This document shows, in pieces, positions 38,202 to 57,640 of a DNA stretch of 64,000 bases. Position 1 is the stretch's first letter, and each line of letters starts with the position of its first letter. This DNA comes from Spirochaetota bacterium. Its GTDB lineage: Bacteria; Spirochaetota; UBA4802; UBA5550. The stretch lies in NCBI GenBank assembly GCA_963664815.2, contig CAXXHB010000003.1:1568001-1632000 (forward strand), read 5' to 3'. A program made the translations under genes and the position numbers. A model generated the notes under the pieces. The model saw nothing but the letters and a program-made list of their open reading frames with translations, had not been told where the DNA came from and did no database searches.

Positions 38202-38249
38202 ACCGCTGATGTCATCTATAAAAAAAGAAGAATCATGAGGTGCCGTAAT

Positions 38250-39825: not shown

Positions 39826-41142
39826 TTACTCGAGTTAGGCGTTTTTTGGACATAGCTACGCCACGAGTTTTAGTTTTTTATAAATGTCCCTCTTGGAGAC
39901 ACCCTTTTTATGCATTATAATCACTTGATCAACGTACTCCCGCTTCTTCATTATTTTGAAATACTGTCGAGATTTCCCAAGACTCTGTTCATTGTTAGCA
40001 ACTCTCAATGATTCAAGTAAAGCATACGCAGCAAATACAAGAGCACAGTATTTTTCTATTGCCTTCAGTTTCCTCATCTGGTATTGACTCATACCAAGAC
40101 GATCTTTACAATAAAGATATCCAACTTCAATATCCCAGCGAAAGCTGTAATATTTCAAGATGCCTTCATTATTCAAGTTCATATCCGTACTAAGGATGAA
40201 CATTCTAGATCCGTCCTTGACTCTCTTTGATATCAGTATAATTGCATTACCGATACCTTTCAGCCAGACTTCTATCTGTCTGACTTTGAAGGCTTCATCC
40301 TTTAATTTTACTTTCTCAAAGGATGAGTTTCTTAAGTTTTTCACATAAGCTGACAGCTTATGTTTTTTACCATGCTCTTTGAACTGGAATACTCTATTGC
40401 TCTTAAGCGCTCCTATAAGTTCAAATTCCCGGTCTTTTACAGCTTTTACGACTTTCTCCGATGTGTGCCAGCTATCTACTAAACAGTATATCTTATCTCC
40501 TGTAAAAGGTTCAAACTTATCTATCAATTCACATGCTATATCCGGTTTTGTTTTAAATACTTCTCCGGATTCAGTTGCCACTTACTCATTTAGATAAAAC
40601 CGGAAATCATATGGGAAAGATATATCCCCTGATCTATAATGACTTGTCACCAAGCTGTGATCATATACCGTTCTGCCTTTTGAATGAGAATAATGCCACC
40701 CGAGACTTTCTATCTTCTTCGGTTTTCCCGGCTTCTCTATCACAGTATCATCTATTATTAAAAAGCCTGTCCCGTTTTTCTTAGCGATACATTTTAAAAA
40801 ATTCCTGTTAACTCTTAAAAGATCTTTACAGGTCCAAGCTGTATCTCTTATAAACTTTATATCATTACTAACATCTCTTGTGTCAACCTGAATGGAGTTG
40901 ATACTTGAGATTGTATGACGACCATCATATTCTATTATCCCTTTCAGCATCTTAGTAAAATGCCTCATTTGCGGTTTTGAAAAAATTTCTTTCGCCGCTG
41001 TAAAATACTTGCCTTCTGTAATCTGTTGTTTATTTTTTTATTCATTAGAGTTTTTAAAATACTTTTCATAATGGGGTAAAAAATTAATACTATTTTTTGC
41101 CCCATTATCTTTTTCTTTTAAAAAAACGCCTAACTCAAGTAA
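39826..41142 (-). mobile_element. IS701-family-like insertion sequence (about 1.3 kb)
   Basis: Terminal inverted repeats ttactcgagttaggcgtttttt (39826-39847) and aaaaaacgcctaactcaagtaa (41121-41142), 21/22 match, enclosing a DDE transposase. Confidence 0.9.
39856..41045 (-). pseudogene. IS701-like DDE transposase, disrupted
   Basis: LIIDDT..EKPG, VDSWH, LKSNR and Y..RWDIE motifs. ORFs 40582-40968 and 39856-40581 are in the same frame, split by one TAA; the ATG at 41045 is out of frame. Confidence 0.85.
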
Positions 41143-41289: not shown

Positions 41290-42243
41290 GTGCAGAAAAA
41301 TGGCAGTAAAAGTCCGAAGAACAAAAATCAGAATAAAATATGGGATAATATTTCGATAAAAGATCATCCTCTTGATGGTATGGGAAATCCTTCTTATAAA
41401 AAATATGATCCCATATTAAGTGTTTATAAATATTCAGCAGACTATAGGGATCCGGTTCTGGGGAAAATTGATAAATCAGAAAACCTGTTCAGCAAAAAAT
41501 ATAAGTGGAGAATGAAAGGGCTTAGTATAGATTCAAGATTTTTTGCTGTCTGGTCAAATGAGAAAATTTATAAAAACTATTTCAATTCACTTTATAAAAC
41601 AGCAAAAAGTATGCATAACAGGTATAGAGATAGTGATAGTGTTATGGCGGTTGAGCCGGAGGATTATGTTGCTATGACTATAGGTTATTTTATTAAAAGT
41701 ACAGAGAAGTGTCAGCTGGAATATAATAATCTTATAGATAAGATCGGCTATTATAGTCATTACCCCCTTGATGATACATATAAAAGTTCTGAAGAGATAG
41801 GCCTTGGTGTAATGAAAATGTATAATCAAAAGCTGAAGTCTAACTTCACGGATGCTCTGCGAAGACGAGGACCTGTGCCGCAGGGTAATATACTGAACAT
41901 TGTTAACTCCGACCAGTCGTTTACTGATTCCGTAATTTCAATCGAGCAGGAAGTCTCTTCGCTTCCTTACTTGAAAAAAAAAGGTTATGCCGGGGCTGTG
42001 TTTTATTATCTTGCACTTGGTTCCCTTTCCAAAAAGGAGATAGAAATCAGTGTTAAAGAAAAATTTCAGATAGCAGGAAATGATTTTAAATACTGCATTC
42101 AGCGGGCTGTCCATGAAATTAAAAGTGATATAATATACAGGATTTTATCTATTCAGAAGGAAATCTGTAATCATGGTGATATAGAAGTGCTGCTTATCAG
42201 AATTGGAGAGTATCTGAGTTTACAGTATGAAGGAGTTGCCTAA
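41290..42243 (+). CDS. divergent ECF-like RNA polymerase sigma factor (putative)
   Basis: ggagg RBS with GTG start. Region-2-like YFNSLYKTA..EPEDYVAMT..NFTDALRRR and region-4-like VSSLP...AVFYY...SLSKKEI...FKYCIQRAVHEIK. Confidence 0.5.
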   Translation: MQKNGSKSPKNKNQNKIWDNISIKDHPLDGMGNPSYKKYDPILSVYKYSADYRDPVLGKIDKSENLFSKKYKWRMKGLSIDSRFFAVWSNEKIYKNYFNSLYKTAKSMHNRYRDSDSVMAVEPEDYVAMTIGYFIKSTEKCQLEYNNLIDKIGYYSHYPLDDTYKSSEEIGLGVMKMYNQKLKSNFTDALRRRGPVPQGNILNIVNSDQSFTDSVISIEQEVSSLPYLKKKGYAGAVFYYLALGSLSKKEIEISVKEKFQIAGNDFKYCIQRAVHEIKSDIIYRILSIQKEICNHGDIEVLLIRIGEYLSLQYEGVA

Positions 42244-43811
42244 TGGAAAGATATAATGAAGCTGTTGCATCACTTAAAGATACATTTCGAAATACCTTTT
42301 TTTCTGAATATGACCCTTTTAATGCGGGCGGCAGAGATCGTGAAATTATGGAAAGCTTCTACTCTGTTTTGAATAATTTTTTATCAGACATGAGTGTAAC
42401 GGGGAAAAAAGATCTTCTGGACCTGCTTGATAATTCGGAAGAGTTTTCATCTAATAATTCATTTGAGATGGATTTTGATCCGTACTTTATTCTTCAGCTT
42501 GCTGCTGACGGAAATCCCCTCTTTGATTCATTGCCTGATGAAACACTGCGCATGGTTGAGCAGCTGCTGAGATCTGAATCTGAATTTCTTGAAGATCTTT
42601 TTGTCTGTGTCGGTCTGAATAATGTGAATCTGCAGAATGAATATATGCTCCAGATGGCGTTGCCTTCATGGAGTGAAATAATGACGCGGATCTTTTTTGA
42701 AGAGAGGAATATTCTTGATGACCTTAGAGCTCCCGATTCAGTTGCGTCAATGGACCCTTCGGTGATTGTTTCTTTTTATCTTGATAGGGATTTTGATAAA
42801 GAAAAGTATAGTTCCTTTGATTTTTTTAAAGATAACGTTCTCAGGAGAGATTTTGAGAAGGCCGCATATATTATTCCGGGTATTTTTAATTTTATTGCCC
42901 AGAGAATTGCAGATCCGGAAAGCTTTTCTTCTTTCCCGGTTGATTTTAATATAATCAAAGAAGTTCAGCATTATATACTGCTCAAGAGTATTGTGGAGCT
43001 GCTTGTATCAGGATCACTTGCCACTGATGACGGCAAAGCCCTTCTTTCAAGGCTATACCTTATTTTTGCAGCATCTGCCGGAGTTAATGATGATAGCCCC
43101 AACTGGAGCTTTAATGCAGGACTGCTGGAAAAATTGTGTAATAATCCGGTAAGAATTGATTCTCTTAATTCGGTACCGTTTACAAGGATTAACAGGGTTG
43201 TTCTTAATTTTCTGACCTCCGTGGCGTATCTCTGTTCTGATGATGAGGGATTTATTAAATCATGTTCAAAACTTCCTGACAGATATGATGGGGTAGTCGA
43301 GTTGATGAATTCTCTGCATATGCAGGATATTACCAAAGAACGGGAGGCTGATTCTGTTCCGTATACTGCAAGGCTTTTTAATAATTTTACAGATGCAGTT
43401 TCGAGGTTTATGGAATCCGGGCTTCAGAGAGAGATGAAGGTTGTTGTTTTAAGGGAGCCTGCAGTAGCGGTGTTTGGTACTGTCCAGGTGCCGGAGAAAA
43501 AATACACAATAAGCGGAACAATAGGGGAATCCTCTTTCACCGCTAAAATTTCAACAGAACTGATAATGGATGAAAAAGCTATTATGCTTGAACTGGATTT
43601 TGATATTGATACTCCCGATCCGGACGGATATGAAGTTGCTTTATATATTAATTTTAAAGGTGTTAAGAAAAGAATTAACTCAAGGTTATTTAAGGGATCA
43701 GCCTTTCATCGGGTTTATAAGCTTGATCCTATGATTCGTATTTCCTATTCCCTTGAACTTTCCCTGACAGATGGAGAAGAATCCCTTATCCTTTTTTCAG
43801 CGGAGTACTGA
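42243..43811 (+). CDS. hypothetical acidic protein, candidate anti-sigma / protease substrate
   Basis: 522-aa ORF translationally coupled (TAATG) to the sigma-like gene; helical N-terminal part and beta-rich C-terminal domain. Function inferred from context only. Confidence 0.6.
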   Translation: MERYNEAVASLKDTFRNTFFSEYDPFNAGGRDREIMESFYSVLNNFLSDMSVTGKKDLLDLLDNSEEFSSNNSFEMDFDPYFILQLAADGNPLFDSLPDETLRMVEQLLRSESEFLEDLFVCVGLNNVNLQNEYMLQMALPSWSEIMTRIFFEERNILDDLRAPDSVASMDPSVIVSFYLDRDFDKEKYSSFDFFKDNVLRRDFEKAAYIIPGIFNFIAQRIADPESFSSFPVDFNIIKEVQHYILLKSIVELLVSGSLATDDGKALLSRLYLIFAASAGVNDDSPNWSFNAGLLEKLCNNPVRIDSLNSVPFTRINRVVLNFLTSVAYLCSDDEGFIKSCSKLPDRYDGVVELMNSLHMQDITKEREADSVPYTARLFNNFTDAVSRFMESGLQREMKVVVLREPAVAVFGTVQVPEKKYTISGTIGESSFTAKISTELIMDEKAIMLELDFDIDTPDPDGYEVALYINFKGVKKRINSRLFKGSAFHRVYKLDPMIRISYSLELSLTDGEESLILFSAEY

Positions 43812-43813
43812 AA

Positions 43814-46800
43814 ATGTTGGTGCTGCGGTTTAAAAAGAAGTCTGACAGAATCGATATTATCGAGTTTTATATTCATAATCAGGGAGATGAACTGAATTCT
43901 ACAGACAGTATAGATATATCAATGGGGGGCACCGGGTGGGCCGGTTATCTTGCTTCAATCTGGAAATGCAAACAGATTATTGAGGGGGCAGTTCTTTCCG
44001 GAAAATTTACTAAAGAGATTCTGAATAAAATGCTGCCGCAGTTTGAAGTGCGGAAGCTGTTTCCGCATCTTGCAGAGAGGAGCGATGGACCGCTCAGTGT
44101 CAGGGATATCTGGCTTAAAAGTGTAGTCTCATCAAACCAGCCCCAGAGAATGGTTCTTCAGGTTGATTCGGATACAGGAATGGTACCATGGGAGTATGGA
44201 GATCTTTCTGAAAATGAGTATTTTTTCAGCAGGCATATACTGACACGACTCCCTTCCGGCATATCTTATACAAAATTGAAGAAACTCGCCAGTTCTGATA
44301 ATATAAATTTTAATCGCGGAATAAGAATATTCCCTGTACTTGCAGATGTAGGGGAGGTAAAATATTTTTCTGAAACGAAAAAATTTATAGATAAGATGAC
44401 TTCTGATCTTGGACAGGAGTATTTTGATGATGACTATAATAATTCATACACCCTGTTTTTGAAAAGTTTCTGCAGTTATCCGGTTGTACATCTTATCTGT
44501 CATGGACCCGGACTTGAAAACAGCTCTAATGCGATTCAGGTAGACCATAGATTTATACCGGTCAGAGATTTTATTAATAACCTGATTGAGCAGTATGTTA
44601 TAAGGAATGAATTTCCCGCTCTTCTCATCCTTTCAGTTTGCGGAGGCGGTTCAGCTATAACTCCTGATCTGATAGCTGAACTCTTTGAAAGGACTTCTGT
44701 CAGTAATATCATTGTATCTTTTTTTTCAATTCCGGTTAATAATACTACTTTTGATTTCTATACAGAATTATACAGAAATATAATTCATAAAGGGATGGCT
44801 GTTTCAGAGGCCTTTCACAAGGCTGTCAATGACCCGTTTAATCCTATAGGAGCAATACACCAGCTCTGGGGAAACCCTGATGTAAAATTTACCCGCATGA
44901 CTGCTGTAGACCAAAATACTGCCGTGAAGGTTCATGATACTGCAACAGCATCGATCTCCGATGCTATAATGGCAAACAAGGTAATGGACCTTATGAAGTC
45001 AAACTCCTTTGACGAGGCATCTGCGGTTATTGACGGCATAAACGATGATGAGACGCAGCAGAAGCTTAGATCAATGAGCAGCAACCTTGAAGCGGATGTT
45101 GCAGAACTTCTGGATAAAGCCCGTTTATCGAGCAGGGATGTTTACACAAATATATTTAAGGAAGGGAGTATCATTGACGGTATTGCTGAATTGGGACTGT
45201 GGCCCGATGGAGAGATATATCACATTGCGTGCGGATTTTATGATTATATAAATAAGGAGAAAAGTATAAGGATCAGGATCCCGGAGGACCAGAGCAGCCA
45301 AAATATTGAACGCCTCAGCTCCCTTGTCAATTCAGACAGCTATAATTCGGCAGCAGGTCTTGAGAAATACTATTACTGTTCAGACTACAGGCTTTTCGGG
45401 GAGAATTTTTCAATATTTTATATCTGCGGCGAAATGCCCGTGGGTGAAAATATTAATTCAGATTCTTTGAAGGAGATTCTGCAGGGGATGTCCCCGGAAG
45501 AGAAAATAGGGATTGCTGTAAAAACCGCTTCTGATCTGTGCAGCGCAATGAATCTTTTTCATAAAAATGATCTGTATTTCCAGACGATTGAACCTTCAAA
45601 AGTATATATAAATCTGAACGGACCTTCTGCCGAGTCCATATATATTGCAGACGCTATGTTTTGTGCTGTCACGGAGGATAAAATAAGCGGCCTTCCTGAA
45701 AACGATGAATGTATATCTGATAGATTAATTGTTTCTAACATGATGGATGTTGCAGGGATAGTGTTTCATGATATTCTTGGTTATGAAGGAGACCTGGGGT
45801 CTCCGTTAAAACCGGGAGTAGCTCTGGTGATTGATGATCATCGCAATCTTATCCGCTGTTATTTTATGAATGAAGAAGGTTATGACAGGGTAATCTCTGA
45901 TAGAAGATTTCATGCATTACTTAAGCTTACTGACTGTAGAAAAGCGAGCAGATACCGGAGTGCGGGTGAAGCGGCTATAATCCTTAAAGGGGGGAATACG
46001 GTTTTTATTAATGAAATGAAAGAAACCGTTATGGCAGGTTCCCGGTTATTATATCTTATGGACAGATATGAAGATCCTGTTACTGTTGATGATATATGCA
46101 ATAATTTCGGGAGGACTGTGCTTCTTGATGAACTGCTGAAAAAAGGGTCGGATATGGCCTCTCCGAAGGTAGTAATAGTTAATGCGATGAACAGGCATGA
46201 TTTTTATCGTTGCCTTGAACCCTCTAAAACTTCCGGTGATCCATTTTTTATAGTTCTTCTTAAAAGTGGAATTAATATTATGATTCTTGATATTAACGAT
46301 GTGTTTGATGTCGATGAGAAAGCAGTGAGATACTATCATTTTTTTATGACATATATGAAAAGATATCTTGAACAGCCGTCGAGACCGTCTGTAGTAATGC
46401 TTTATTCTAACGCGGTTTACAGTTTTTTTAAAGATAAAAATCTGCTCAAGCATATGAAGATTTTATTTAATTCACCATATGATATTCATGATTATTATAG
46501 AGAAATTCACAATTCATCCCTGGCTTCCGAAATTCAGCTTGATGAAAATGAGATAAATGAAATTGCAGCGAATTGCATAGGACTGACATTACGCGAAGTC
46601 AAATACGCCATGGGTTATATTCTATCCTGCGATCTGATGAATTCAGTTTCGGGTGACGGTTTTAAGAGCTACCTGAATGAATACCGCATGAAAACAATGC
46701 TTTCAGGATCGAGGATTCTCAGGTTATATACTCCAAAGGATGATGTTTACGGGGGGTATCATGGTCTGGATGATTTCATAACTTCAGTCAGGATAAGTCT

Positions 46801-47539
46801 TGATTATAACTTCAGCATCAATTTCAAGTCATCTATTTTTACCGGGTTTTCCGGGACAGGGAAAAAATCCGCTGTGTCGTATCTGGTAAAAAGGCTGGAA
46901 ATCCCGGCTGTTTCGCTGGATATTTCGGAGATATTTGCAAACGGTTTAGACTCCAATCCAGTAGGCCTGCTAAGGTATGCTCTGGCACTTGTAAAACAGA
47001 TGCAGCCGTGTATATTGATAATTAACAGGTTTATAAAAGATATCATAGTTGCTTCAGAGAATTCATCAGCTCTGAAACTTATAATGGGGACTCTTCTCAC
47101 ATGGCTTCAGGATATCGGAAATACAAATATTCTGGTGTTTGCCCATGATTCTGTTAACAGTATAGCCGATGCAGAATCTCTTAATCATGAATTTACAAGA
47201 TCCGGACGATTTACGGAAAAATTTTTTTTTAATTACCCGTCTATTGACTCCGAAAAAGAGATTCTCGGATTATATGCCGGGTCTCTCGGTGTTAAGATAA
47301 GCGATGAAGAAGCAGTTGCCGTATTATCGGAAGAACAGATGTCCGGTTGTCTGACTCCTGCTGATATCCGTTATACAATGAATGAAACAGCGCTCAGGTA
47401 TATAAAGAATGAGAATGGTACAGTACCGGATCTTTTCAGGGGTGTTGTGAAGAGGGGGTTATATCTCAGGTCTGATAGAAATTATAATGCTGCACTGGCT
47501 GGAAGAATGAAAGATTCCGGATATACTATATTGAATTAA
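43814..47539 (+). CDS. CHAT (caspase-like) protease - pseudokinase - degenerate Ycf46-like AAA fusion
   Basis: CHAT motifs VPWEY, VHLICHG, LILSVCG and LWGNP. Kinase-like SAMNLFHKNDLYFQTIEPSKVYI...IADA...RYRSA. AAA motifs GFSGTGKK, PCILIINRF, LLTWLQD and RSGRF. Confidence 0.8.
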   Translation: MLVLRFKKKSDRIDIIEFYIHNQGDELNSTDSIDISMGGTGWAGYLASIWKCKQIIEGAVLSGKFTKEILNKMLPQFEVRKLFPHLAERSDGPLSVRDIWLKSVVSSNQPQRMVLQVDSDTGMVPWEYGDLSENEYFFSRHILTRLPSGISYTKLKKLASSDNINFNRGIRIFPVLADVGEVKYFSETKKFIDKMTSDLGQEYFDDDYNNSYTLFLKSFCSYPVVHLICHGPGLENSSNAIQVDHRFIPVRDFINNLIEQYVIRNEFPALLILSVCGGGSAITPDLIAELFERTSVSNIIVSFFSIPVNNTTFDFYTELYRNIIHKGMAVSEAFHKAVNDPFNPIGAIHQLWGNPDVKFTRMTAVDQNTAVKVHDTATASISDAIMANKVMDLMKSNSFDEASAVIDGINDDETQQKLRSMSSNLEADVAELLDKARLSSRDVYTNIFKEGSIIDGIAELGLWPDGEIYHIACGFYDYINKEKSIRIRIPEDQSSQNIERLSSLVNSDSYNSAAGLEKYYYCSDYRLFGENFSIFYICGEMPVGENINSDSLKEILQGMSPEEKIGIAVKTASDLCSAMNLFHKNDLYFQTIEPSKVYINLNGPSAESIYIADAMFCAVTEDKISGLPENDECISDRLIVSNMMDVAGIVFHDILGYEGDLGSPLKPGVALVIDDHRNLIRCYFMNEEGYDRVISDRRFHALLKLTDCRKASRYRSAGEAAIILKGGNTVFINEMKETVMAGSRLLYLMDRYEDPVTVDDICNNFGRTVLLDELLKKGSDMASPKVVIVNAMNRHDFYRCLEPSKTSGDPFFIVLLKSGINIMILDINDVFDVDEKAVRYYHFFMTYMKRYLEQPSRPSVVMLYSNAVYSFFKDKNLLKHMKILFNSPYDIHDYYREIHNSSLASEIQLDENEINEIAANCIGLTLREVKYAMGYILSCDLMNSVSGDGFKSYLNEYRMKTMLSGSRILRLYTPKDDVYGGYHGLDDFITSVRISLDYNFSINFKSSIFTGFSGTGKKSAVSYLVKRLEIPAVSLDISEIFANGLDSNPVGLLRYALALVKQMQPCILIINRFIKDIIVASENSSALKLIMGTLLTWLQDIGNTNILVFAHDSVNSIADAESLNHEFTRSGRFTEKFFFNYPSIDSEKEILGLYAGSLGVKISDEEAVAVLSEEQMSGCLTPADIRYTMNETALRYIKNENGTVPDLFRGVVKRGLYLRSDRNYNAALAGRMKDSGYTILN

Positions 47540-47552
47540 CAAGGAGAATGAT

Positions 47553-49388
47553 ATGTCTGCGCAGGAACAGGTACTCAAGGAGATAAAAAGTCACATTATA
47601 GCAGGGTTCCGTTTTATATATGTTTCGACATCTGAGGAGACTGAGTTTATAGACAGGATGAAAGATTCGGTTGAATCTGATTCTGCATTCGGTTCTCTTG
47701 TGCTTTTTGTTGATTACGACGAGATAACAACAATGTCCAGAATTTACGGAACAAATACAAAAAAAATTATAGATGACTATGGCTGGCCTATAAAGAATTT
47801 CAAGTATGAATGCAGCGATATCCAGAAAAAGGACTCGGCAACAATGGACAGGTATAATGGTATCAGCCACCCGCTTGAGATGGCGTTTAATCTTGAGAAC
47901 CTTAACCCTGTACTTGACAAAATCAATCAGTCTGAATTTCAGAGTGCCAAAGACAAGATCCGATTTATATTTTTTATCAAGGACGCTCACCTGCAGTTTT
48001 TTATCCGAACAAGAAATTTTAAAAGAATTGAAGATTTTTTTGAAAAGAGGGGATATAACCGTGCTGATTTTTTCTTTGTTCTTATCTCATCATTTCCGGG
48101 AAGTATTATTCCTGAAGATTTTTCCCGTTACGTTGTGAGTTTTGATTATCCGCTGCCGGGAATGGATACTATGAGAAAAATCATTGCAGAAAAGATTTTT
48201 GCAGGGAGCGAAAAGATTAATGAAGAGACAGATGTGCTGGTTGACAATTTTGCAAGAGCCGGAGTGGGTCTCTCCGAGAGGGAGTTCAGGCTCTCTTTAA
48301 ACCTTGCTATGCAGGAGGGGGAGGGCAAGCTCACCCTGAACACACTGGGTACCATACATAATCAGAAGTCACAGATACTGAAAACATCAAATCAGTTTCT
48401 TGAATATATTACAGACAGCACCATTTATGGAGGAGATGAAACTTTTAAGGATATAGGCGGAATGGACCAGCTCAAAGACTGGATAAAATTAAGGAAACTA
48501 CTTATTAACCCATCGGAGAAACTTGCATTTAACGAGGAACAACTTGCAATTCTCAACAGACTTGATAAACCCAAGGGCCTGCTGCTCTTTGGTATTTCCG
48601 GGGGAGGGAAATCCCTCATGGTACGTCACATAGCCCGACTATTCAAAGTACCTCTCCTACGTCTTGATATAGGGCGTATTTATGGCCAGTATGTAGGGCA
48701 GTCTGAAAGAAATATCAGGGAAACCATACGGCTTGCAGAGGCTATGTCTCCATGTGTATTATGGATTGATGAAATTGAGAAAGGGTTTGCCGGATCTCAG
48801 GGAAGCGGCGACAGCGGAACCTCCTCCAGGGTCTTCGGTTCATTTTTAACATGGATGCAGGAAAAAAAGGCTATGGTTTTTGTTGTGGCCACGGCAAATA
48901 ATATAACTTCAATACCACCTGAAATGACAAGGATGGGGCGTTTTGATGCACTCTTCTTCGTCCCGCTTCCTGATCTGGAGGGGCGTAAGGAGATATTTAA
49001 AATACATCTCCGTAAATATATTCCTTTAACAGTGATGCCGGATGAAAATGTTGACAGACTTGCTGCAGATGTTTTTGAAACCGGATCCAATAGCGAAAAT
49101 TTAAGATGCATCACCGGTGCGGAGATTGAACAGTGTGTTAAAAACGCGATCCTTGTTAATCTTCATTCATCTGTTTCATCAGGTGATTCTAATCTTGAAT
49201 CTGCAATCAGGGAACAATTCATGATTGTCACACCTATGTACAAAAACCCGGTATTAAACGAACAATACAGAGGTCTGTGCAGATGGGCGGAATCGCGGGC
49301 AATAATTGCGGGAGCTTATGATGATAACGATGATGACGCTCTAAATAGTTTCGGGAGGGATCCCGGAGCCGGCAGATTGAATCATTAA
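47553..49388 (+). CDS. Ycf46-like AAA+ ATPase
   Basis: DIGGMDQLKDW, PKGLLLFGISGGGKS (Walker A), LLRLDIG, PCVLWIDEIEKG (Walker B), FLTWMQE, VATAN and RMGRFD; N-terminal inactive ATPase-like domain. Confidence 0.93.
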   Translation: MSAQEQVLKEIKSHIIAGFRFIYVSTSEETEFIDRMKDSVESDSAFGSLVLFVDYDEITTMSRIYGTNTKKIIDDYGWPIKNFKYECSDIQKKDSATMDRYNGISHPLEMAFNLENLNPVLDKINQSEFQSAKDKIRFIFFIKDAHLQFFIRTRNFKRIEDFFEKRGYNRADFFFVLISSFPGSIIPEDFSRYVVSFDYPLPGMDTMRKIIAEKIFAGSEKINEETDVLVDNFARAGVGLSEREFRLSLNLAMQEGEGKLTLNTLGTIHNQKSQILKTSNQFLEYITDSTIYGGDETFKDIGGMDQLKDWIKLRKLLINPSEKLAFNEEQLAILNRLDKPKGLLLFGISGGGKSLMVRHIARLFKVPLLRLDIGRIYGQYVGQSERNIRETIRLAEAMSPCVLWIDEIEKGFAGSQGSGDSGTSSRVFGSFLTWMQEKKAMVFVVATANNITSIPPEMTRMGRFDALFFVPLPDLEGRKEIFKIHLRKYIPLTVMPDENVDRLAADVFETGSNSENLRCITGAEIEQCVKNAILVNLHSSVSSGDSNLESAIREQFMIVTPMYKNPVLNEQYRGLCRWAESRAIIAGAYDDNDDDALNSFGRDPGAGRLNH

Positions 49389-49402
49389 GGATAAGTCTGA
49401 TT

Positions 49403-50242
49403 ATGGATAGCTGGAAATATAATTTATACCGGACAGCATTTTCCTCTATTTTTATGAGGGCTGATTATAATTTAGAATATGACAGCTACAGGTATTTTCT
49501 TGATACATTCGGGAGTCTGAACCATGAGATGTATCTGTTATTGTGGGATAACCTTCTCCGTTACGTATATTTAAAAGATGAAAAATATGATATGTTTCTT
49601 TATGGAGAACTTTCACCCGTTTCCTATTCATTAAAATGGCATATGGATTATCTTCAAAACCCTGAGAAAAAAACCAGATCCAGATGCCGGTTCAGAAAAA
49701 GGCGGAATCCCCCTTATATGGAAATTATGAATTCGATATCTGAAACTCCAAATGTAGTCGATTATTTTTTTATAAATTCTATCTTCAGGAAATCAGACTC
49801 TCAATTTATTAAAGATGTGCTATTAAGTAATGACAAGCCTGCAAAATCCCTGGTCCAGTTTATCCGGAATAATCGTCTTCTTATTGCAGGAACACCTGCT
49901 GATAATTATCTTAAAGAATATGAAGCATCTCTCAATGCCGGCAGAAAAGATTCAGATAAAAGGAAAGAAAAAAATAACAATAAATGTGAGGATGTGAATC
50001 ATCCGAAAGTTTATCTATACAATCCGCCCGATGTGAATAATATAAAACAGCTTGTTCAATCCGGTATGGCAACAGTATCTATTCAGGAGGCTTTTTCTGT
50101 TTTTATCTCTTCCCAAATCTTGAGCCTCGATAACTTTTTTAAAAATGATATTATTAAAATGTTTAATCCGGTTTATTTTCCCGAAACTGAAAAAAAATTT
50201 CTGAAACACTATGCTGTTTCAGCAGAAGTTTCGTCTAAGTAG
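49403..50242 (+). CDS. hypothetical protein
   Basis: 279-aa ORF within the operon; no recognised motif. Confidence 0.7.
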   Translation: MDSWKYNLYRTAFSSIFMRADYNLEYDSYRYFLDTFGSLNHEMYLLLWDNLLRYVYLKDEKYDMFLYGELSPVSYSLKWHMDYLQNPEKKTRSRCRFRKRRNPPYMEIMNSISETPNVVDYFFINSIFRKSDSQFIKDVLLSNDKPAKSLVQFIRNNRLLIAGTPADNYLKEYEASLNAGRKDSDKRKEKNNNKCEDVNHPKVYLYNPPDVNNIKQLVQSGMATVSIQEAFSVFISSQILSLDNFFKNDIIKMFNPVYFPETEKKFLKHYAVSAEVSSK

Positions 50243-50316
50243 ATTTAATATAGGGTAAATATCCGGCTGTTCAGGATCAGGCCGGTTTGCAATGATAAAT
50301 GATTTAAGGGGGAATT

Positions 50317-50835
50317 ATGAGCGGCAGGATTACAATTTGCCTTCAGAAGAGCGTTACAAAAAGAAAATTTCGCGGAACCGTTGAATTTCCCGGAAATCTC
50401 TACTCGTCAATACTTGGTGACCTGATAAAAGAGGGTCTTCTTACAGAATGGAAAGATGGGGATTATGAGGGGAAACCCTGTAAAATTAAAGAAGTAACCC
50501 TTATGTATATGGAGAATGAACTCACAGCGCAGCTGATACTTCAGCGGGATCAGGATGGCTACAACATGAACATCAGATTTGATCAGCAGAAGATCGAAAT
50601 ATACGAAGAGTGGGAGAACCAGGCTGGAAGCAGTATTGAAGAAGCATTGCAGAAGGTCACAGCTGTTGAATCCGCCCTTATCGATTACGAGGTGCTTAAA
50701 TATTACCACAAGGACAGAATTGATGTGACCCTTAATGTAAATGAATTCTCCGATGATCTTGTTAAGATTAAAGTGAATGATAATTATGAAAACCGTTCCC
50801 AGAAGATAGAATATTATGCCGTGGAGAGGTATTAA
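50317..50835 (+). CDS. hypothetical protein (possible FtsH-ternary-system fvmX-type component)
   Basis: RBS present; abuts the next ATG. N-terminus MSGRITICLQKSV loosely recalls MSRAYRI-type partners of these ATPases. Confidence 0.65.
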   Translation: MSGRITICLQKSVTKRKFRGTVEFPGNLYSSILGDLIKEGLLTEWKDGDYEGKPCKIKEVTLMYMENELTAQLILQRDQDGYNMNIRFDQQKIEIYEEWENQAGSSIEEALQKVTAVESALIDYEVLKYYHKDRIDVTLNVNEFSDDLVKIKVNDNYENRSQKIEYYAVERY

Positions 50836-52533
50836 ATGCAGGATCTTCTTGAGGTAATAAAAAATGAATACAAAGCCGGATACAGGGCAGGTGTTGATGA
50901 ATTTTCTGATTTATTCTGGGACAGCGATGAGGAGAACAATCTCCATAATACTCATTTCCGGGTATTCAGAAAACAGATAGATTCAATTACTGAATCCCTT
51001 TTTAATAAAAAGAGTGTAGTGGTTTACTGTGACAGAAACCTTTCAAGACATATAGGCAGATGTCTGCGTGACAGGATAAAAGAGAAAAGCCGCATTTATG
51101 GCGGGGATAGCAGGCTCAACCCGATTGAATGCGGATTTCTAGAATATAACAGCAGCGCGAAAACAACATCTACAAGGGTAAGAGAATTTCTCATATCGGA
51201 GAAAATAGGTGCCGGCGAAACATGGATTGTATATAATTTTGACCTGATTTCAGTAAAAAATATCGGCGATTCATCTATTGATATAGATTTGTGTTTTAAT
51301 TTTCTTGAAAAAAAAAATCAGGGAGCCAAGCTTGTAGTATTTGTTGACCCGGATATTTGTACCCTTCCGAAATATTTTGAAAAACATTTTGATACGGTTT
51401 ATATTAATGGAATTTCATCCCCGGCATCTCTTCTCCCTGTGTTTACTTTTAAAGAGTTCCAGAAGATTGCATCAATAGAAAAAGGCAAATCATGGGATGA
51501 CGTTGAAATAGAAGACATTAATATTAACCCGGAGGTTCTATACCAGCTTTATAACTACCTTTCAGCATTTTCACCTGAAGAGATAAGGGTGATCCTTAAA
51601 ATGGAAAGGAAACCCGATGAAAGCTTTGTCGATTCGGTTAAAAGAAACAGAAACAGGTATCTCCATGATGTTATGGATCTTTATTCCGTAAGCAAGGATT
51701 TTAAAATCGAGGTTCCGTGGCTGAAAAAGGAAAAAGATCAGATTATAAATCTTATAAACTATTCACAGGTAAAGGTTCATGCAAATCCTCATAAAAAGAT
51801 AAGGGGTATAATCCTTTATGGCCCGCCGGGCAACTCAAAAACCACACTCATCAAGAGTATATGCCAGGATATAAATACAAACTATATTATAGTCAGTGCA
51901 TCTGATATAAAGAGCAGATATTTAGGCGATTCAGAGAAAGCTGTTAAGGATCTTTTCAGGAAAGCCGCCCAGGCTGCACCATGTATTCTTGTATTTGATG
52001 AGATGGAAGCGCTTTTCTTAAGCAGGGATATTCAGATGAGCAATCCATCAGGGGGTATGCTAGGGATTGTGAGCACGCTCCTTCAGGAGATGGACTCTAT
52101 TCAGAGCAGCGTTAATGTTTTTGTTATAGGAACTACCAATAAACTTGAAATGCTCGATAAAGCATTTCTCAGACCGGGAAGATTTGACCGGATAATGAAG
52201 ATAGACCATCCCCGGAGAAGTGATATCCCGGTGATTGTCGATTCGCTGCTGAGGATATACCTCGACGGAGGGGACCCGGAGGATACCGGCAGAATTTCTG
52301 AAAACCTTGTTAAAGTAATCCAGGCAAGGTGTACCGAAGCTGAATTGAAAAAAAAAGCAGCGTTTTCTATTGCTGATATTTCCCATATTATAAGAATGCT
52401 TGATATTGAACGTTTTAACGGTAATAAAGAAGAGATCATCAAACTTGTTTCTGCAATAGTTTATGACATTGATGAGGTCAGGGCTGATACGGTGTCATCA
52501 AAAACCGGCAGACCGGATGACAGCGTTTTTTAA
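50836..52533 (+). CDS. classical-clade AAA+ ATPase (FtsH/CDC48-like ATPase domain, no protease or TM domain)
   Basis: RGIILYGPPGNSKT, SRYLGDSEK.V..LF..A, PCILVFDEME, LLQEMD, IGTTN and AFLRPGRFD motifs. Confidence 0.92.
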   Translation: MQDLLEVIKNEYKAGYRAGVDEFSDLFWDSDEENNLHNTHFRVFRKQIDSITESLFNKKSVVVYCDRNLSRHIGRCLRDRIKEKSRIYGGDSRLNPIECGFLEYNSSAKTTSTRVREFLISEKIGAGETWIVYNFDLISVKNIGDSSIDIDLCFNFLEKKNQGAKLVVFVDPDICTLPKYFEKHFDTVYINGISSPASLLPVFTFKEFQKIASIEKGKSWDDVEIEDININPEVLYQLYNYLSAFSPEEIRVILKMERKPDESFVDSVKRNRNRYLHDVMDLYSVSKDFKIEVPWLKKEKDQIINLINYSQVKVHANPHKKIRGIILYGPPGNSKTTLIKSICQDINTNYIIVSASDIKSRYLGDSEKAVKDLFRKAAQAAPCILVFDEMEALFLSRDIQMSNPSGGMLGIVSTLLQEMDSIQSSVNVFVIGTTNKLEMLDKAFLRPGRFDRIMKIDHPRRSDIPVIVDSLLRIYLDGGDPEDTGRISENLVKVIQARCTEAELKKKAAFSIADISHIIRMLDIERFNGNKEEIIKLVSAIVYDIDEVRADTVSSKTGRPDDSVF

Positions 52534-52548
52534 AAAGGAGGATTTTGT

Positions 52549-52854
52549 ATGATAAATCAGGATGCAAAGATAGTTTTCAGTATAAAGGGTTTTAATGAAA
52601 CCGGAAAGCTGGATGACCGGGAATTTTCAATCGAAGTGGATATTGATTGTGAATTAAAACATAAAGAGGGTATGCCAGATGCTGAACATGGGAATATGCA
52701 TGATCTGATTGTAAGTTATGTAAAAGACTTCATTATGGAGCCCGGGCCCGGGCCGTACCAGCGTCGTTCGCTTGATGTACATGACAGAGATAGTAAAGAG
52801 GCGGAGAAAATAAGCCAGCCGGATGTTTTACGGGTAGAAGTAACAGAGCAATAA
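52549..52854 (+). CDS. small hypothetical protein (possible fvmX-type component)
   Basis: aggagg RBS; FNETG...F.IEVD...EH...HD pattern; lies between two ATPase genes. Confidence 0.7.
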   Translation: MINQDAKIVFSIKGFNETGKLDDREFSIEVDIDCELKHKEGMPDAEHGNMHDLIVSYVKDFIMEPGPGPYQRRSLDVHDRDSKEAEKISQPDVLRVEVTEQ

Positions 52855-52870
52855 AAGACAGAGGTAATAT

Positions 52871-54112
52871 ATGAATCAGAGACTATCACAGAAGAAATTT
52901 AAAGAGGACCTACATAATAATATTACCGGAGGGGTTCTGGACCGGATAAAAAATATCAGAATGGAGATGAGGCAGCATTTCTGGGGGAGCAGATACGAAG
53001 AAATTATTGATAATATTATAATTGCAGCAATGGCCGGTCAGCCGATCCTCCTGATCGGGAAACCGGGAGTTGCTAAATCTCTTATAATGACAACCTTTTT
53101 TTCTCTCTTAGGACTTAATAAAACATATCAGGACGAAAAAGGGGAATCCCTGCCAGGGGCCAAGTATTTTCAATATCTTCTTCATAGCTTTACAATGCCG
53201 GATGAAATTCTTGGAGTAATCAAGATAGGAAAGTTTTTAGAGGAGAGCAAATTTGTAAGGGAGAGAGAGGGTTCCCTGAATGATCAATATGTGAAAGCCG
53301 CGTTTCTTGATGAAGTTTTTAATGCCAATTCTACCATACTGAATATGCTTCTTAGCATAATTAATGAGAAGGAGTTTTATGAAGGGGGGGTAGCTCACAG
53401 GAGCAACCTGTTTATAATTGCCGGTGCCGCTAACCGGGTTCCAAGAGAGCCAGAATTACATGCTTTTTTTGACCGGTTTCCCGTAAGGCTTATTGTTGAC
53501 CTTAACCTGAGTGAAAAAGTGAGCCTTGAAGAGTATAATAGAAGGTTGTCATTATCGTCAGACACTCTGCAGGATGAGGATCAGATAGACTTTGATCAGT
53601 CAGAGGAGATTTCGTTTGATGATCCGGTCTTTTTCAGAATAATAGATCAGGGTATAGAGAATCTGAAAAGACGATCATACTCTATCAAAGGTATAAAGTA
53701 TGACAGGTATCTCACCGGAGAGAATAGTATGCCGACTGTGGAGGATTTTGAAACGGTGCATAACTATATCGTTTCACATTATTCTGCATCGGACGGGAAA
53801 ACTTTCACGGATGACGCAAAAAAAGCCATGGCAAGGCTTGTAGAGGATCTCAGCGAAACAGATACCTGTAATATTAATGGCCGAAATATTGTAAAACTCT
53901 ATATGCTTTCAGCCGCTTCTGCAATTTTCAGGGCGGCTGTTGAAGGTCCGGGTGATGATGGATTCTCTCAGCCGCAAATAACTGTTCAGGATCTTTCCGT
54001 ATTCAGGAATATATGGAATTCAGATAATAATGAAATAATATCAATGCATTTCGGGGCGGTGGATAGTATATTGAACGAATATGACAGTGATTATAAAGGT
54101 TACAATGGATAA
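52871..54112 (+). CDS. MoxR/RavA-family AAA+ ATPase
   Basis: ILLIGKPGVAKS, YFQYLLHSFT.PDEILG, FLDEVFNANSTILNMLL and AFFDRFPVR motifs. Confidence 0.93.
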   Translation: MNQRLSQKKFKEDLHNNITGGVLDRIKNIRMEMRQHFWGSRYEEIIDNIIIAAMAGQPILLIGKPGVAKSLIMTTFFSLLGLNKTYQDEKGESLPGAKYFQYLLHSFTMPDEILGVIKIGKFLEESKFVREREGSLNDQYVKAAFLDEVFNANSTILNMLLSIINEKEFYEGGVAHRSNLFIIAGAANRVPREPELHAFFDRFPVRLIVDLNLSEKVSLEEYNRRLSLSSDTLQDEDQIDFDQSEEISFDDPVFFRIIDQGIENLKRRSYSIKGIKYDRYLTGENSMPTVEDFETVHNYIVSHYSASDGKTFTDDAKKAMARLVEDLSETDTCNINGRNIVKLYMLSAASAIFRAAVEGPGDDGFSQPQITVQDLSVFRNIWNSDNNEIISMHFGAVDSILNEYDSDYKGYNG

Positions 54113-55520
54113 AGAATTCATATCTGAATTATACGATTATGCCGAATTTTCTCCTATTCTGAGGGAAATAGACAGGATATATTATACTTATTCAGATTAT
54201 ATTACTGATTCGAGTTCTCTCGGGGATGATATTCTTAAAATTCATTCTATAGAACTGGAGGATGCTTTTATTGTAGTTTATTTATTTTTAGTTTTAATAC
54301 TTTTACAATTTGATCCTGCAGGAAATCTAAAATACAGATTTAAAAGAATTGCTTCCGAGTTTTCCGGAACAATATGCTTTAACTTTGCTAAAAGGCTTGA
54401 TGAGTTTACCGGTTTTTCAGCTCCATCTGTAAAGGATTTCCGAAATTTTCCGGAAATCCTACCGGCTGTAATGGGGATTCTTTTCAATCTCCGGAGTCAA
54501 ACTGATTTATCTCTTTTTGTTGAATCAATACTCAGGGAGAGGTTTTATTTTTTTTCATCTATTTATCTTGATGACAGCAAAAGGCCGATGGTTAGAGGGA
54601 TAGCTGCAAAGTTGTACTCGGCTTATATCAACGATAAAATGAGAGTGTATGAATTATTTGACGGCCCGGAAGGCAGTTACGTGAAGAAACCGGTCAGCAG
54701 GTTTAAACAGATTAATGTAAATGAATTTGATGTTTACAGTTATTACGGAAGTATGCCTATACCTTCTGAATTCTGCAGGATGAAGGCCGGTAAATATTTT
54801 AAACCGGATAAAATTCTGAAAAAACATAACAATCCTATAGCGGGTTACAAAGATGATCCATTCAGAGATATCGGGATTGTTGCAAAGTACGATTATTTAG
54901 CAGGACGGATGATAAAGCTCGGTGAGTCGTTTGATAAAATAATTGAGAGGAGTTTCAATCTCAGATTTGTCATAATACATCCTGTTGCCGGACTTTTTCA
55001 AAGAGAACTGCTTGATATTATACCTCTTGTTTTTACTCATTTTTTTTCTGAATACGTTCCTGATGTAACTTCCATAAATCTTAAAATAATCAGGGGAAAC
55101 AGCATTGATGGTTTTTCAAAATATGAAATGGAGTTTGATACCATCCCTCTCATAGACTGTTGTTTTCTTTCTGATCATTACATGAATTCCTATTTTCTTC
55201 ATAATATGAATGAGGAACCGATGGACAGGATTACTTTAAAAAAATTTTTTGAAGAAAAAAGTTATATAGTAATAAACTCTCCGGATAGCCCCGGGCTGGA
55301 GCAGAATATGATGAAAAGTCTGTTAAATCCTTTATTCTGTATGGGGAATATTGAACTGCATAATGATGATTCATTGCTGTTTAAATCTGACAATATGTAC
55401 CGGGAGGAATTGCTTAAATTTTTTGACAGTCATTCACAGTCATTCACAGCCGGTTTTTATGATATCCTTCGTCATGTGTCTTCCAGAATTATTCGTGCGG
55501 GGGAAATGGAATATGTATAA
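54105..55520 (+). CDS. hypothetical protein downstream of MoxR ATPase
   Basis: Likely start MDKEF overlapping the MoxR stop; no intact MIDAS DxSxS motif seen. Confidence 0.7.
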   Translation: MDKEFISELYDYAEFSPILREIDRIYYTYSDYITDSSSLGDDILKIHSIELEDAFIVVYLFLVLILLQFDPAGNLKYRFKRIASEFSGTICFNFAKRLDEFTGFSAPSVKDFRNFPEILPAVMGILFNLRSQTDLSLFVESILRERFYFFSSIYLDDSKRPMVRGIAAKLYSAYINDKMRVYELFDGPEGSYVKKPVSRFKQINVNEFDVYSYYGSMPIPSEFCRMKAGKYFKPDKILKKHNNPIAGYKDDPFRDIGIVAKYDYLAGRMIKLGESFDKIIERSFNLRFVIIHPVAGLFQRELLDIIPLVFTHFFSEYVPDVTSINLKIIRGNSIDGFSKYEMEFDTIPLIDCCFLSDHYMNSYFLHNMNEEPMDRITLKKFFEEKSYIVINSPDSPGLEQNMMKSLLNPLFCMGNIELHNDDSLLFKSDNMYREELLKFFDSHSQSFTAGFYDILRHVSSRIIRAGEMEYV

Positions 55521-57378
55521 ATATTACAAAACATCTAATTTGATGTTTACATTGAGGCAGCTTGAAAGGATTCCGGTCCAGGATATATCGTATAACGAAG
55601 AGTATTCGGTGTTCAGGGTCAAGTATACAAAAAGTTTCCGGCCGTCTTTTTATCTATTGTCTTATGAAGATGGTATATACTCTTCCATGAAAATAAAATT
55701 TTCTCCTGTCGGGGAATACCACGAAATAATACACCAGGAGATAGATTTCAGTGGAAGGAAGAAATACGGATGGGACGGAGGCTCCGTGCTTATTCTTTTC
55801 AGGAAGAATAAGCACGGAAAAAATGACGATGGGATCATCAGGATTCTTGAAAAAGTTGTGGCGAAACAGGATATTATTATAAAATCGTCATTTCTTAATA
55901 ATGAGATGTGGGACTTTGGTCTGCTTATTGATAATTTGAAGGATTACCTGTTTATTAAACTGATTCATGAATCGGGTGTCGCGGACGTTTTTGAAAGATG
56001 TGATAACTATGTTTTCTTTAAGGACATGCAGGGATATTATCCGAAATGTTTCACCCCCTGGGACAGGATTATTATTCCAAGAACTGATTCTGAACTTGCA
56101 GTGCCTGACATGCTTCTGATGATGGATGGTGATTCAAAGGTAACAGGCTGCATGATTCCATCAAAAAATTTTGAAACAGTTTTTACGAATCTAAAGGTAT
56201 ATCTTGACAGGGTCTCATTTGAAAAAACAGATATTGCGGAGTCAGAAAAAATTTCGCTTACCATAAGGCAGCCGGCTTTTAAACCTGTAACTGAATTTAA
56301 ATCAGAGATAATAAAACAGATTTCATACGTAAACAGTTTAAGGGAACAGCTTAGACGGCAGGAGATAAAACTCCGGAATATGGAGTCTAATCTATCTGTT
56401 GTACAGGATCAGGTTACCACACCTGCAGGATTGCTTAAGGTTACTATACCACAAAAACCTTCCAGATTATGGCAATCGGTTTTTAATAAAATTCTGATGT
56501 CGCTTCCAGGGCGTAATTTTTCATCTCAGGTTTTCAGAAAGAAAGAATCGTATGAAATTATTGTTATGGATAATGGCTGTATAGACCCTGATATGAAAAA
56601 TCCGGATGGTGTACTGGATGGGATGACTCTTCCTGATTATAGAGAAAGCCTCTATTCGCTGGATATGAGACTTTTTAATGAAACAGGACTTTCGTTGTTT
56701 TTTCCGAAGTATGATGGATCAGGCAGACCGTTTGTTATAGGGAGATTCAATAATGATCTTGCTCCTATGCTTTTCAGATCGTTGATACAGAAGTTAAGCC
56801 GGGAACTGGACTCCGGAGAAGAACAGCAGGAGGGTATGGCGGATACTATTGAGGTGCATAATCAGACTGGTTTTATGATTATTGGTGATGAAAACAGTGA
56901 TGATGAAAGCAGAGATTATTTAACGGAAGAATATTATTATATTATAGATAGCGGTATGGATGCGGATGATCCGCTGATTCATATATCACGCTACAGCAGG
57001 CATGATCTTCTTCCATTTGATAGCTTGTGTGACAGGTTTATGATTAATGCAAATATAAAACGGATTGAATTGGATAACTCAGATCATAATGACAGGATAG
57101 AGATATTCGGTGAAGGTGATTTTATTAAGTCATTTCAGGACAGGCTATATGGCAGGGATAATGAAGCTCTATTTAATAACCTTAATGAGAGGAAAAAGAC
57201 TTTTACTGATGATAAACAGGTTTTTGAAAAATCTATCAATGACTTTATTAAAGACAGGGACAGGTTTAACAGTATTACCTCTTCAGCCGGGAAAGCATTG
57301 AAAAAGATGCAGAAAATAATAGATAACGTATCAGGGATGGAGTCGGGAAGAAAAGTGGAAGGAGATGGAAAGGAATAA
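55513..57378 (+). CDS. hypothetical protein with coiled-coil segments
   Basis: Likely start MYKYY overlapping the previous stop; heptad-like LREQLRRQEIKLRNMESNL and a helical C-terminus. Confidence 0.72.
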   Translation: MYKYYKTSNLMFTLRQLERIPVQDISYNEEYSVFRVKYTKSFRPSFYLLSYEDGIYSSMKIKFSPVGEYHEIIHQEIDFSGRKKYGWDGGSVLILFRKNKHGKNDDGIIRILEKVVAKQDIIIKSSFLNNEMWDFGLLIDNLKDYLFIKLIHESGVADVFERCDNYVFFKDMQGYYPKCFTPWDRIIIPRTDSELAVPDMLLMMDGDSKVTGCMIPSKNFETVFTNLKVYLDRVSFEKTDIAESEKISLTIRQPAFKPVTEFKSEIIKQISYVNSLREQLRRQEIKLRNMESNLSVVQDQVTTPAGLLKVTIPQKPSRLWQSVFNKILMSLPGRNFSSQVFRKKESYEIIVMDNGCIDPDMKNPDGVLDGMTLPDYRESLYSLDMRLFNETGLSLFFPKYDGSGRPFVIGRFNNDLAPMLFRSLIQKLSRELDSGEEQQEGMADTIEVHNQTGFMIIGDENSDDESRDYLTEEYYYIIDSGMDADDPLIHISRYSRHDLLPFDSLCDRFMINANIKRIELDNSDHNDRIEIFGEGDFIKSFQDRLYGRDNEALFNNLNERKKTFTDDKQVFEKSINDFIKDRDRFNSITSSAGKALKKMQKIIDNVSGMESGRKVEGDGKE

Positions 57379-57380
57379 TT

Positions 57381-57635
57381 ATGCCTCATAGTAATGAACC
57401 GGTTTATTATGACAGAAGCCGTATCGCCTCTATGTTGGATGAAGCGGCTGAGATAACTAATGTTCTGGTCTCTGACGCTGATATTATGTTGGATCAGTTT
57501 AATAGAATAACTAATAGAAAAAAGCCGTGGTATGAGGGTAATATACAGGGAGAGGGGGAATCCGGTTTGTTTGAAAATATACTGAGTTTTATTAAAAAGA
57601 TGCTGTTTCCGGTTAAATCCGGAGGTGGAAAATAA
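57381..57635 (+). CDS. small hypothetical protein
   Basis: aagga RBS; 2-nt and 5-nt gaps to its neighbours; amphipathic C-terminal helix LFENILSFIKKML. Confidence 0.65.
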   Translation: MPHSNEPVYYDRSRIASMLDEAAEITNVLVSDADIMLDQFNRITNRKKPWYEGNIQGEGESGLFENILSFIKKMLFPVKSGGGK

Positions 57636-57640
57636 TAATT

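Follow-up and report, generated by a model that had tools for sequence, protein, structure and literature searches.

A CHAT-family protease joined to a probable pseudokinase and a degenerate, probably tandem AAA module in a rare accessory operon of a Spirochaetota bacterium

Activation of bacterial caspase-like proteases is known to proceed through TPR, STAND or SAVED modules or through CRISPR complexes. In SAVED-CHAT and in Craspase, the CHAT protease is inactive until its attached or bound sensor module assembles; activation is brought about by cyclic oligoadenylate-driven filament formation in the case of SAVED-CHAT and by the Cas7-11-RNA complex in the case of Craspase. Here we describe a gene, P0001, within a stretch of 64,000 nucleotides from a Spirochaetota bacterium (contig CAXXHB010000003.1, positions 1,568,001 to 1,632,000 of the forward strand; this whole stretch is referred to as the window, and coordinates are those of the window unless indicated otherwise). 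P0001 occupies positions 43814..47539 (+) and encodes a protein of 1241 amino acids that consists of an N-terminal region, a CHAT domain, a helical linker, a probable kinase-like domain, a probable D1-like domain and a D2 AAA domain. If this layout is correct, the attachment of CHAT to both an inactive kinase and an inactive tandem-AAA module, beside a MoxR ATPase and two intact AAA paralogues, would represent a different control logic, based on the assembly or remodelling of rings.

The operon to which P0001 belongs resembles, by its gene content, a class of systems that has been predicted computationally, the MoxR-vWA 'ternary' conflict systems (Kaur, Burroughs, Iyer and Aravind, eLife 2020; PMC7159879). 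According to the sections of that paper on which this comparison draws, systems of the FtsH-type class possess a component that carries a pair of FtsH-type AAA domains, one dead followed by one active, caspase-like or radical S-adenosylmethionine (SAM) effectors, several unique helical proteins, and a MoxR ATPase with the variant P-loop GXXXTAKS, which the beta-propeller class also has. The FtsH-type systems are predicted to form large multimeric complexes whose assembly is controlled, and they have been linked to the modification of peptides by radical SAM enzymes. In the iSTAND class, caspase-like domains are fused to a dead STAND NTPase (all PMC7159879). No experimental test of FtsH/MoxR ternary systems was found in the literature searched, including the part of this paper used here. 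The locus would be a compact and testable example of these systems. By its sequence, the operon is a new and very rare variant within the predicted class.

The open reading frame (ORF) of P0001 is uninterrupted for 1241 codons. All motifs that an earlier note, made from the letters alone, had listed for it were present at the positions given there, i.e., PWE (residue 125), HLICHG (226), LSVCG (273), LWGNP (351), YFQTIEP (588), DAM (613), GFSGTGKK (1011) and CILIINRF (1066). Two relatives, P0007 (1246 amino acids, 40% identity) and P0009 (1221 amino acids, 23-26% identity), are full-length and collinear; P0001 is a real gene and not a chance ORF. The family alignment was made up of P0001, P0007 and P0009, and residues referred to as invariant are those identical in all three; they included His226, His230, Gly231, Pro232, Cys276, Gly277, Trp352, Gly353 and Asp613 as well as the motif HEFTRxGRF. 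The family turned out to be exceptionally small, as an exhaustive HMMER search with residues 1-980 among 1.84 billion representatives (E <= 0.001) yielded three proteins including the query. Also two scans of species-representative genomes and one scan of JGI metagenome contigs did not identify any P0001-like locus. The gene occurred in none of the 60 genomes of relatives, among them seven of the same genus; missing from all of these and lying next to a transposase fragment, the locus is accessory. Whatever function it proves to have would count as new biology, although one of narrow distribution.

The CHAT or caspase-like peptidase domain comprises residues about 110-360 (44141..44893, +). 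The Pfam CHAT family (PF12770) scored 14.5 bits with the whole of P0001 and 19.4 bits (E 7.9e-4) with residues 101-365 alone; P0007 reached 12.8 bits and P0009 gave no match. As these scores did not attain the gathering cut-off of 24 bits, profile-profile comparison with hhalign was carried out, in which a three-sequence profile of residues 100-365 was aligned with a set of 29 authentic PF12770 domains encoded in genomes of this phylum. This resulted in a probability of 97.0%, an E-value of 8.1e-11 and a score of 75.3 over 207 columns. The controls were far lower, with 15.2 for the reversed profile, 20.7 for the best of 30 column shuffles and 9.8-15.1 for five other regions of P0001. In the alignment, VHLICHG was placed over the family motif IHFATHG and LSVCGG over LSACETG, and therefore His230 (codon 44501-44503) and Cys276 (codon 44639-44641) fall on the catalytic dyad of the family. 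In the AlphaFold2 model of residues 1-730, which had an overall predicted local distance difference test (pLDDT) of 38.6 on a three-sequence alignment, the CHAT core (residues 161-350) reached 48-76, and the strands 224-230 and 270-276 terminated exactly on His230 and Cys276. When this core was compared with the Protein Data Bank (PDB) by Foldseek, the SAVED-CHAT filament 8tl0 came out on top (E 2.3e-3, probability 1.00, 18-19% identity, about 190 columns) and caspase-4 ranked sixth. Homology of this region to CHAT with an intact His230/Cys276 dyad, as put forward in the earlier note, is thus established at the level of sequence comparison, and peptidase activity is likely. Elsewhere in the same genome, one canonical CHAT protein is encoded (987-amino acid frame, E 2.1e-57; G000:C3:3360171-3361124 (-), L040).

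The C-terminal D2 domain (46811..47536, +) was identified as a degenerate classical AAA domain by Pfam, by its paralogy to the product of the following gene, P0004, and by its motifs. Residues 1008-1140 matched the Pfam family AAA (PF00004) with 28.7 bits at a cut-off of 21.2 (37.8 bits for P0007); D2 shared 29% identity with the AAA domain of P0004 (E 4e-16), hhalign gave 99.4% for D2 against D2, and a PDB sequence search with the whole of P0001 returned AAA matches exclusively. Walker A (GFSGTGKK, residue 1011) is intact in P0001 and P0007, while P0009 has lost the equivalent of Lys1017 (GIPGTDPA). At Walker B (residue 1069), P0001 reads IINRF, with Asn1071 for Asp. The catalytic Glu is missing in all three members, and the sensor-1 place (residue 1110) reads AHDS, with an Asp. 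In the motif TRSGRF (residue 1128), Arg1129 and Arg1132 are invariant. Because the Walker B acid is absent in P0001 and the catalytic Glu in every relative, D2 of P0001 is predicted to be dead for hydrolysis, and it may still be competent in nucleotide binding. This agrees with the catalytically dead C-terminal AAA domain of the earlier note; its description of a Walker B without acidic residues is true of P0001 but does not extend to the relatives, which keep the Asp (VIDRF and WIDGF).

Preceding D2, a second AAA-like domain probably exists that the earlier domain list did not include. According to AlphaFold2 and Foldseek, residues 726-990 (45989..46783, +) form an alpha/beta domain without P-loop, followed by a helical part. 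Residues 726-890 were modelled at a pLDDT of 65-89 as a strand-helix-strand domain, with AGSRLLYLMDRYED (residue 741) at the would-be P-loop and ILDINDVF (residue 824) at the place of Walker B. Foldseek with residues 726-1241 placed tandem D1-D2 AAA proteins on top (p97/VCP, Cdc48, NVL and ATAD2; E 2.6e-11, 450-627 columns). The corresponding template modelling scores were about 0.2 only, because half of the C-terminal model is of low confidence. These models suggest that D2 is probably preceded by a P-loop-less AAA-like domain, which would complete a tandem module.

Between the CHAT domain and this module, residues about 454-721 (45173..45976, +) probably constitute a protein-kinase-like pseudo-enzyme domain, as indicated by hhalign and the ESM Atlas. 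Against 30 PF00069 domains from the phylum, the middle domain scored 35.9-38.9 (E 2e-4 to 7e-5, probability 47-64%), whereas the reversed profile reached 15.4, none of 30 column shuffles went beyond 22.0, and the remaining five regions of P0001 stayed at or below 18.4. With a permissive setting, residues 454-721 were collinear with kinase positions 2-258, from the Gly-rich loop to helix I. Also the single sequences of P0001 and P0007 scored 28.7 and 26.2, above shuffle maxima of 18.4 and 19.9. In the ESM Atlas, the P0001 middle domain had 205 of 256 features in common with kinase clusters and reached 0.96, a level to be read against the roughly 1 in 100 shuffled proteins that attain 0.95, and the ten best family-carrying matches all belonged to the kinase family or clan. 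By the hhalign register, the VAIK Lys is replaced by Arg488, the HRD Asp by Thr591 and the catalytic Asn by Lys596, whereas the DFG Asp is retained as Asp613, which is invariant together with the APE-like Glu632 and Arg698. We consider it likely, though well short of certain, that this region has a kinase-like fold. If so, it would be a pseudokinase, since of the four catalytic residues just the DFG Asp remains. The pseudokinase of the earlier note is thus probably right as to the fold and the loss of the HRD Asp, but the DFG Asp, which it had taken to be lost as well, is present. No family was recognized by Pfam in residues 440-730 at thresholds up to E 10, the profile search against PDB sequences yielded no kinase but just a chance match (E 0.49), and AlphaFold2 remained at a pLDDT of 22-47 across the domain. 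One canonical protein kinase domain is encoded elsewhere in the same genome (1110-amino acid frame, E 1.3e-28; G000:C3:2342164-2342766 (-), L004).

P0001 is the third of at least 13 genes on the same strand of the window, which are part of an operon of about 27 kb with gaps of mostly -32 to 16 bases; larger gaps occur before 57641 (262 bases) and before 50317 (74 bases). It is preceded by P0002 (317 amino acids) and P0003 (522 amino acids; together 41290..43811, +), which overlap by 1 base and match no known family. P0003 stops 2 bases before P0001, and its search returned no relative besides itself. Directly downstream, P0004 (611 amino acids; 47553..49388, +) comprises an N-terminal domain of about 330 amino acids and an intact classical AAA domain (GISGGGKS, WIDEIE, ATANN, RMGRFD). 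Two small genes (279 and 172 amino acids; 49403..50835, +) without known family in the library scans are followed by P0008 (565 amino acids; 50836..52533, +), which likewise combines an N-terminal domain with an intact classical AAA domain (GPPGNSKT, VFDEME, GTTN, RPGRFD). The N-terminal domains of P0004 and P0008 (about 300 amino acids) were not recognized as AAA-like by hhalign, and that of P0004 had three relatives in the search. Next to a gene of 101 amino acids, also without known family in the library scans (52549..52854, +), a MoxR-type AAA+ ATPase of the bpMoxR family is encoded (52871..54112, +; PF20030, E 1.1e-35), which carries the variant P-loop GKPGVAKS. Four further genes of no known family (479, about 620-675, 591 and 1791 amino acids; 54081..64000, +) extend to the end of the window, the last one beyond it. 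Past the window, the same strand continues with genes of 322 and 401 amino acids and is closed by a 212-amino acid NrdG-like radical SAM enzyme (L065:7965-8603 (+), equivalent to G000:C3:1634964-1635602), about 3.6 kb behind the window end and about 20 kb from the CHAT gene. The enzyme matched Fer4_12 with E 1.1e-18 and NrdG with 69 bits, below the cut-off of 126. The earlier note did not include this context, with its pair of active AAA paralogues, bpMoxR and a radical SAM enzyme.

With the FtsH-type ternary systems, as far as they are described in the sections of Kaur et al. (PMC7159879) used here, the operon shares the variant-P-loop MoxR ATPase, a caspase-like effector, the radical SAM enzyme and several operon-specific proteins without known family; in addition, the AAA proteins of the operon carry an active C-terminal AAA domain behind a non-canonical N-terminal domain. 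However, the caspase-like effector of the published systems is a separate gene fused to EAD1, whereas here it is fused via a probable pseudokinase to a tandem-AAA module in which the second domain is dead as well. Three AAA paralogues occur here and one in the published systems, the MoxR protein is a member of the family found in beta-propeller systems, and neither EAD1 nor genes for ubiquitin-like conjugation were detected in the proteins of the operon. As in the iSTAND class of the same paper, the effector domain is N-terminal to an inactive P-loop NTPase and situated beside MoxR, but the dead NTPase is a classical AAA domain (PF00004) rather than STAND, and an extra pseudokinase domain is present. 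The 'unusual' architecture of the earlier note is less exceptional than it appears there, as the linking of caspase-like domains to inactive NTPases and FtsH-type AAA proteins with a dead first domain have been described (PMC7159879). For the exact fusion, no description in print was found, while the source-data architecture tables of PMC7159879 may list it.

The operon also shares features with systems beyond the ternary class. The CHAT core has SAVED-CHAT (8tl0) as best structural match and is similarly attached to another module; in contrast to SAVED-CHAT and Craspase, CHAT is here attached to kinase-type and AAA-type pseudo-enzymes. Defence by IetAS employs the AAA ATPase IetA and the subtilisin-like protease IetS. 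Here, too, a classical AAA ATPase is located alongside a protease, which is however of the CHAT type and fused to its own dead AAA module. P0004 matched the PADLOC IetA models with E 6.2e-17; on the NCBIfam model IteA, P0004 scored 59.9 bits and P0008 78.2 bits at a cut-off of 510, and P0004 was rejected as IetA on this score. Hetero-oligomeric AAA rings of type II in which some domains have degenerated are known from Pex1/Pex6 and p97-like proteins. P0001 recalls these proteins by its tandem D1-D2 layout, in which one domain does not hydrolyse, and by the joint encoding of paralogous subunits; they differ from P0001 in that the latter contains a caspase-like domain and in that a hetero-ring is hypothetical here.

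Taking domains and context together, we propose that P0001 supplies the effector subunit of a conflict operon with several ATPases, of the immune or suicide type, which would be akin to the FtsH-type MoxR-vWA systems. The dead tandem-AAA module would serve as an assembly handle, by which the protease joins, or is held by, rings with P0004 and P0008, and the retained arginine fingers of P0001 may serve the active site of a neighbour; their conservation argues for a live AAA partner. A trigger would be relayed by MoxR together with the membrane and large proteins that the operon encodes, and remodelling driven by ATP would then gather or free the CHAT domains. Proximity might activate these domains, as it does in caspases and in filaments of SAVED-CHAT, and they may cleave cell proteins, a pro-toxin or a peptide, so that an infected cell would stop growing or die. 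The pseudokinase could act as a rigid scaffold or as a switch that binds a ligand or partner, without any enzymatic role. As a full mechanism, we regard this proposal as about evenly balanced between right and wrong. Gating by pseudo-enzymes, as already suggested in the earlier note, is what we infer, whereas the homologies of the domains, the state of their motifs, the packing of the operon and the rarity of the family are observations.

Several results weigh against this proposal. Both AlphaFold2 models were of low overall confidence (pLDDT 38.6 and 56.2, each from a three-sequence alignment), and the D1-like domain did not rise above shuffle level in hhalign against the P0004 N-terminus and the D2 AAA domains (scores 14-24). 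No kinase signal was obtained for the middle domain of P0009 (hhalign score 12.7, no usable match in the ESM Atlas). No vWA domain, which is the partner that defines MoxR systems of the published type, was detected in the operon proteins by Pfam (window genes E <=5, others E <=0.01); since the vWA domains of ternary systems are highly divergent (PMC7159879, in the part used here), this does not establish their absence from the operon. PADLOC as well as NCBIfam gave no match for P0001. An anti-phage role is putative, and genes of phages, of restriction or of other types of defence were not recognized in the vicinity; the nearby genes did not include CRISPR or CBASS genes either. Binding of P0001 to P0004 or P0008 is likewise putative. 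Finally, genes of the P0004 and P0001 type probably travel together, as the longest contig has 21098 bases for P0011, a relative of P0004, as well as for P0007, a relative of P0001, but the equality of these sizes is all that this argument uses.

The domain on which the proposed pseudokinase rests could instead be an unrelated alpha+beta domain, making P0001 a fusion of CHAT, an unassigned domain and AAA in which the kinase motifs are coincidental. The blank Pfam result, the chance match in the PDB profile search, the low pLDDT, the modest hhalign probability and the missing signal of P0009 are all in keeping with this possibility, which we nevertheless consider somewhat doubtful, as the hhalign scores exceeded all controls, collinearity with kinases extends from the Gly-rich loop to helix I, the DFG Asp, Glu632 and Arg698 are invariant, and the ESM Atlas pointed to kinases throughout the ten best family-carrying matches. 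Two of the three members retain an intact Walker A while the residues for hydrolysis are gone, which is typical of a switch that binds without hydrolysing. P0001 could accordingly be self-contained: its dead tandem-AAA module would build homo-oligomeric rings with ATP bound and unhydrolysed, similar to an apoptosome or STAND platform, and activate CHAT alone, while the neighbouring ATPases merely recycle or disassemble it or belong to a separate system. The described theme of caspase-like domains fused to inactive NTPases (PMC7159879, in the part used here) would fit, and the gaps of 262 and 74 bases might mark a composite operon. We judge this unlikely. P0009 lacks the Walker A Lys, so that nucleotide binding is no constant of the family, the invariant arginine fingers are best explained by an active neighbour, and a P0004 relative probably travels with a P0001 relative.

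The radical SAM enzyme, on the other hand, allows the operon to be viewed as a peptide-maturation machine, in which a small precursor is modified by the radical SAM enzyme and processed by CHAT as leader or processing peptidase, and in which the ATPases and membrane proteins carry out export, as in the biosynthesis of, or signalling by, ribosomally synthesised and post-translationally modified peptides (RiPPs). Small ORFs (101 and 172 amino acids) and membrane proteins are indeed available in the operon, and FtsH-type systems have been tied to radical SAM peptide modification. In the published systems, as covered by the part of PMC7159879 used here, peptide processing is however an accessory to the conflict system and not a substitute for it. 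Moreover, the radical SAM gene is about 20 kb away from the CHAT gene, and among the operon proteins scanned, neither a precursor nor a SPASM domain, an ABC exporter or a RiPP recognition element could be recognized, rendering this explanation rather improbable. Still less do we expect that P0001, P0004 and P0008 form a caspase-fold ATP-dependent protease, a hetero-oligomeric tandem-AAA ring in which the live pair would unfold substrates, the dead paralogue would bear the peptidase and the pseudokinase would be the receptor of a substrate or signal; we regard this as very unlikely. If true, it would amount to a new class of ATP-dependent protease within an immune operon, with a peptidase that differs in fold from those of the FtsH, Lon or Clp kind.

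The remaining parts of P0001 were less informative. The N-terminal region (residues 1-109; 43814..44140, +) was not assigned to a family; its low-confidence model contains two short strands followed by helices, and hhalign against the CHAT and kinase sets stayed at noise level. The linker (residues about 365-453; 44906..45172, +) is mostly helical and poorly conserved according to the model and the alignment. The locus 42403-54200 was recovered without differences in contigs of sequencing runs from two studies, and P0010, a 92%-identical copy of the P0004 N-terminal region, is located on a separate public contig of 4195 bases, indicating that the operon is present in more than one sample. In an RNA library, only two contigs of 151 bases fell on the P0001 gene, each with 2 differences, and in a library that probably consists of DNA there was one contig of 269 bases; neither transcription nor a habitat can be claimed on so few contigs.

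Upstream of the operon, a fragment of a DDE transposase is directly adjacent (39856..40581, -; PF01609, E 5.6e-9). Together with an adjoining ORF of 128 amino acids, this fragment of the PF01609/PF04693 type covers 39856-40968 (-) and fits a mobile or accessory island. The upstream flank of the locus had a match in one of five genomes of the same genus (84%, 1.3 kb) and the downstream flank in none of the five. The genome itself looks bacterial, as MCR was not found in it and its PGK was matched best by a bacterial model; an archaeal origin, to which an ISC1217-type transposase match and HisKA_2 had pointed, was rejected for these reasons. At the other end of the window, the 591-amino acid protein (57641-59416, +) appeared by eye as a multi-pass membrane protein, with hydrophobic stretches within the first 170 or so residues; its sole match, to the Translin family, was weak (E 7.6e-4), below the cut-off and probably due to chance. 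For the 1791-amino acid protein (59413-64000, +, and onward), which contains a hydrophobic stretch near its N-terminus, neither Pfam nor NCBIfam returned a family; it could be a beta-propeller or sensor component, neither of which was detected in it.

Two regulators, one of the TetR family and one Crp-like and cNMP-binding, are encoded some 2.5 kb upstream of the operon (37545-38852, +). CRP-like regulators are associated with some ternary systems (PMC7159879, in the part used here). Further upstream in the window, we observed a gene for a 510-amino acid protein with 11 WG-containing beta repeats (25022-26554, +; PF14903, E 3e-132) and a gene for an 850-amino acid hybrid sensor kinase with the order receiver-PAS-PAS-HisKA_2-HATPase (16870-19422, +).

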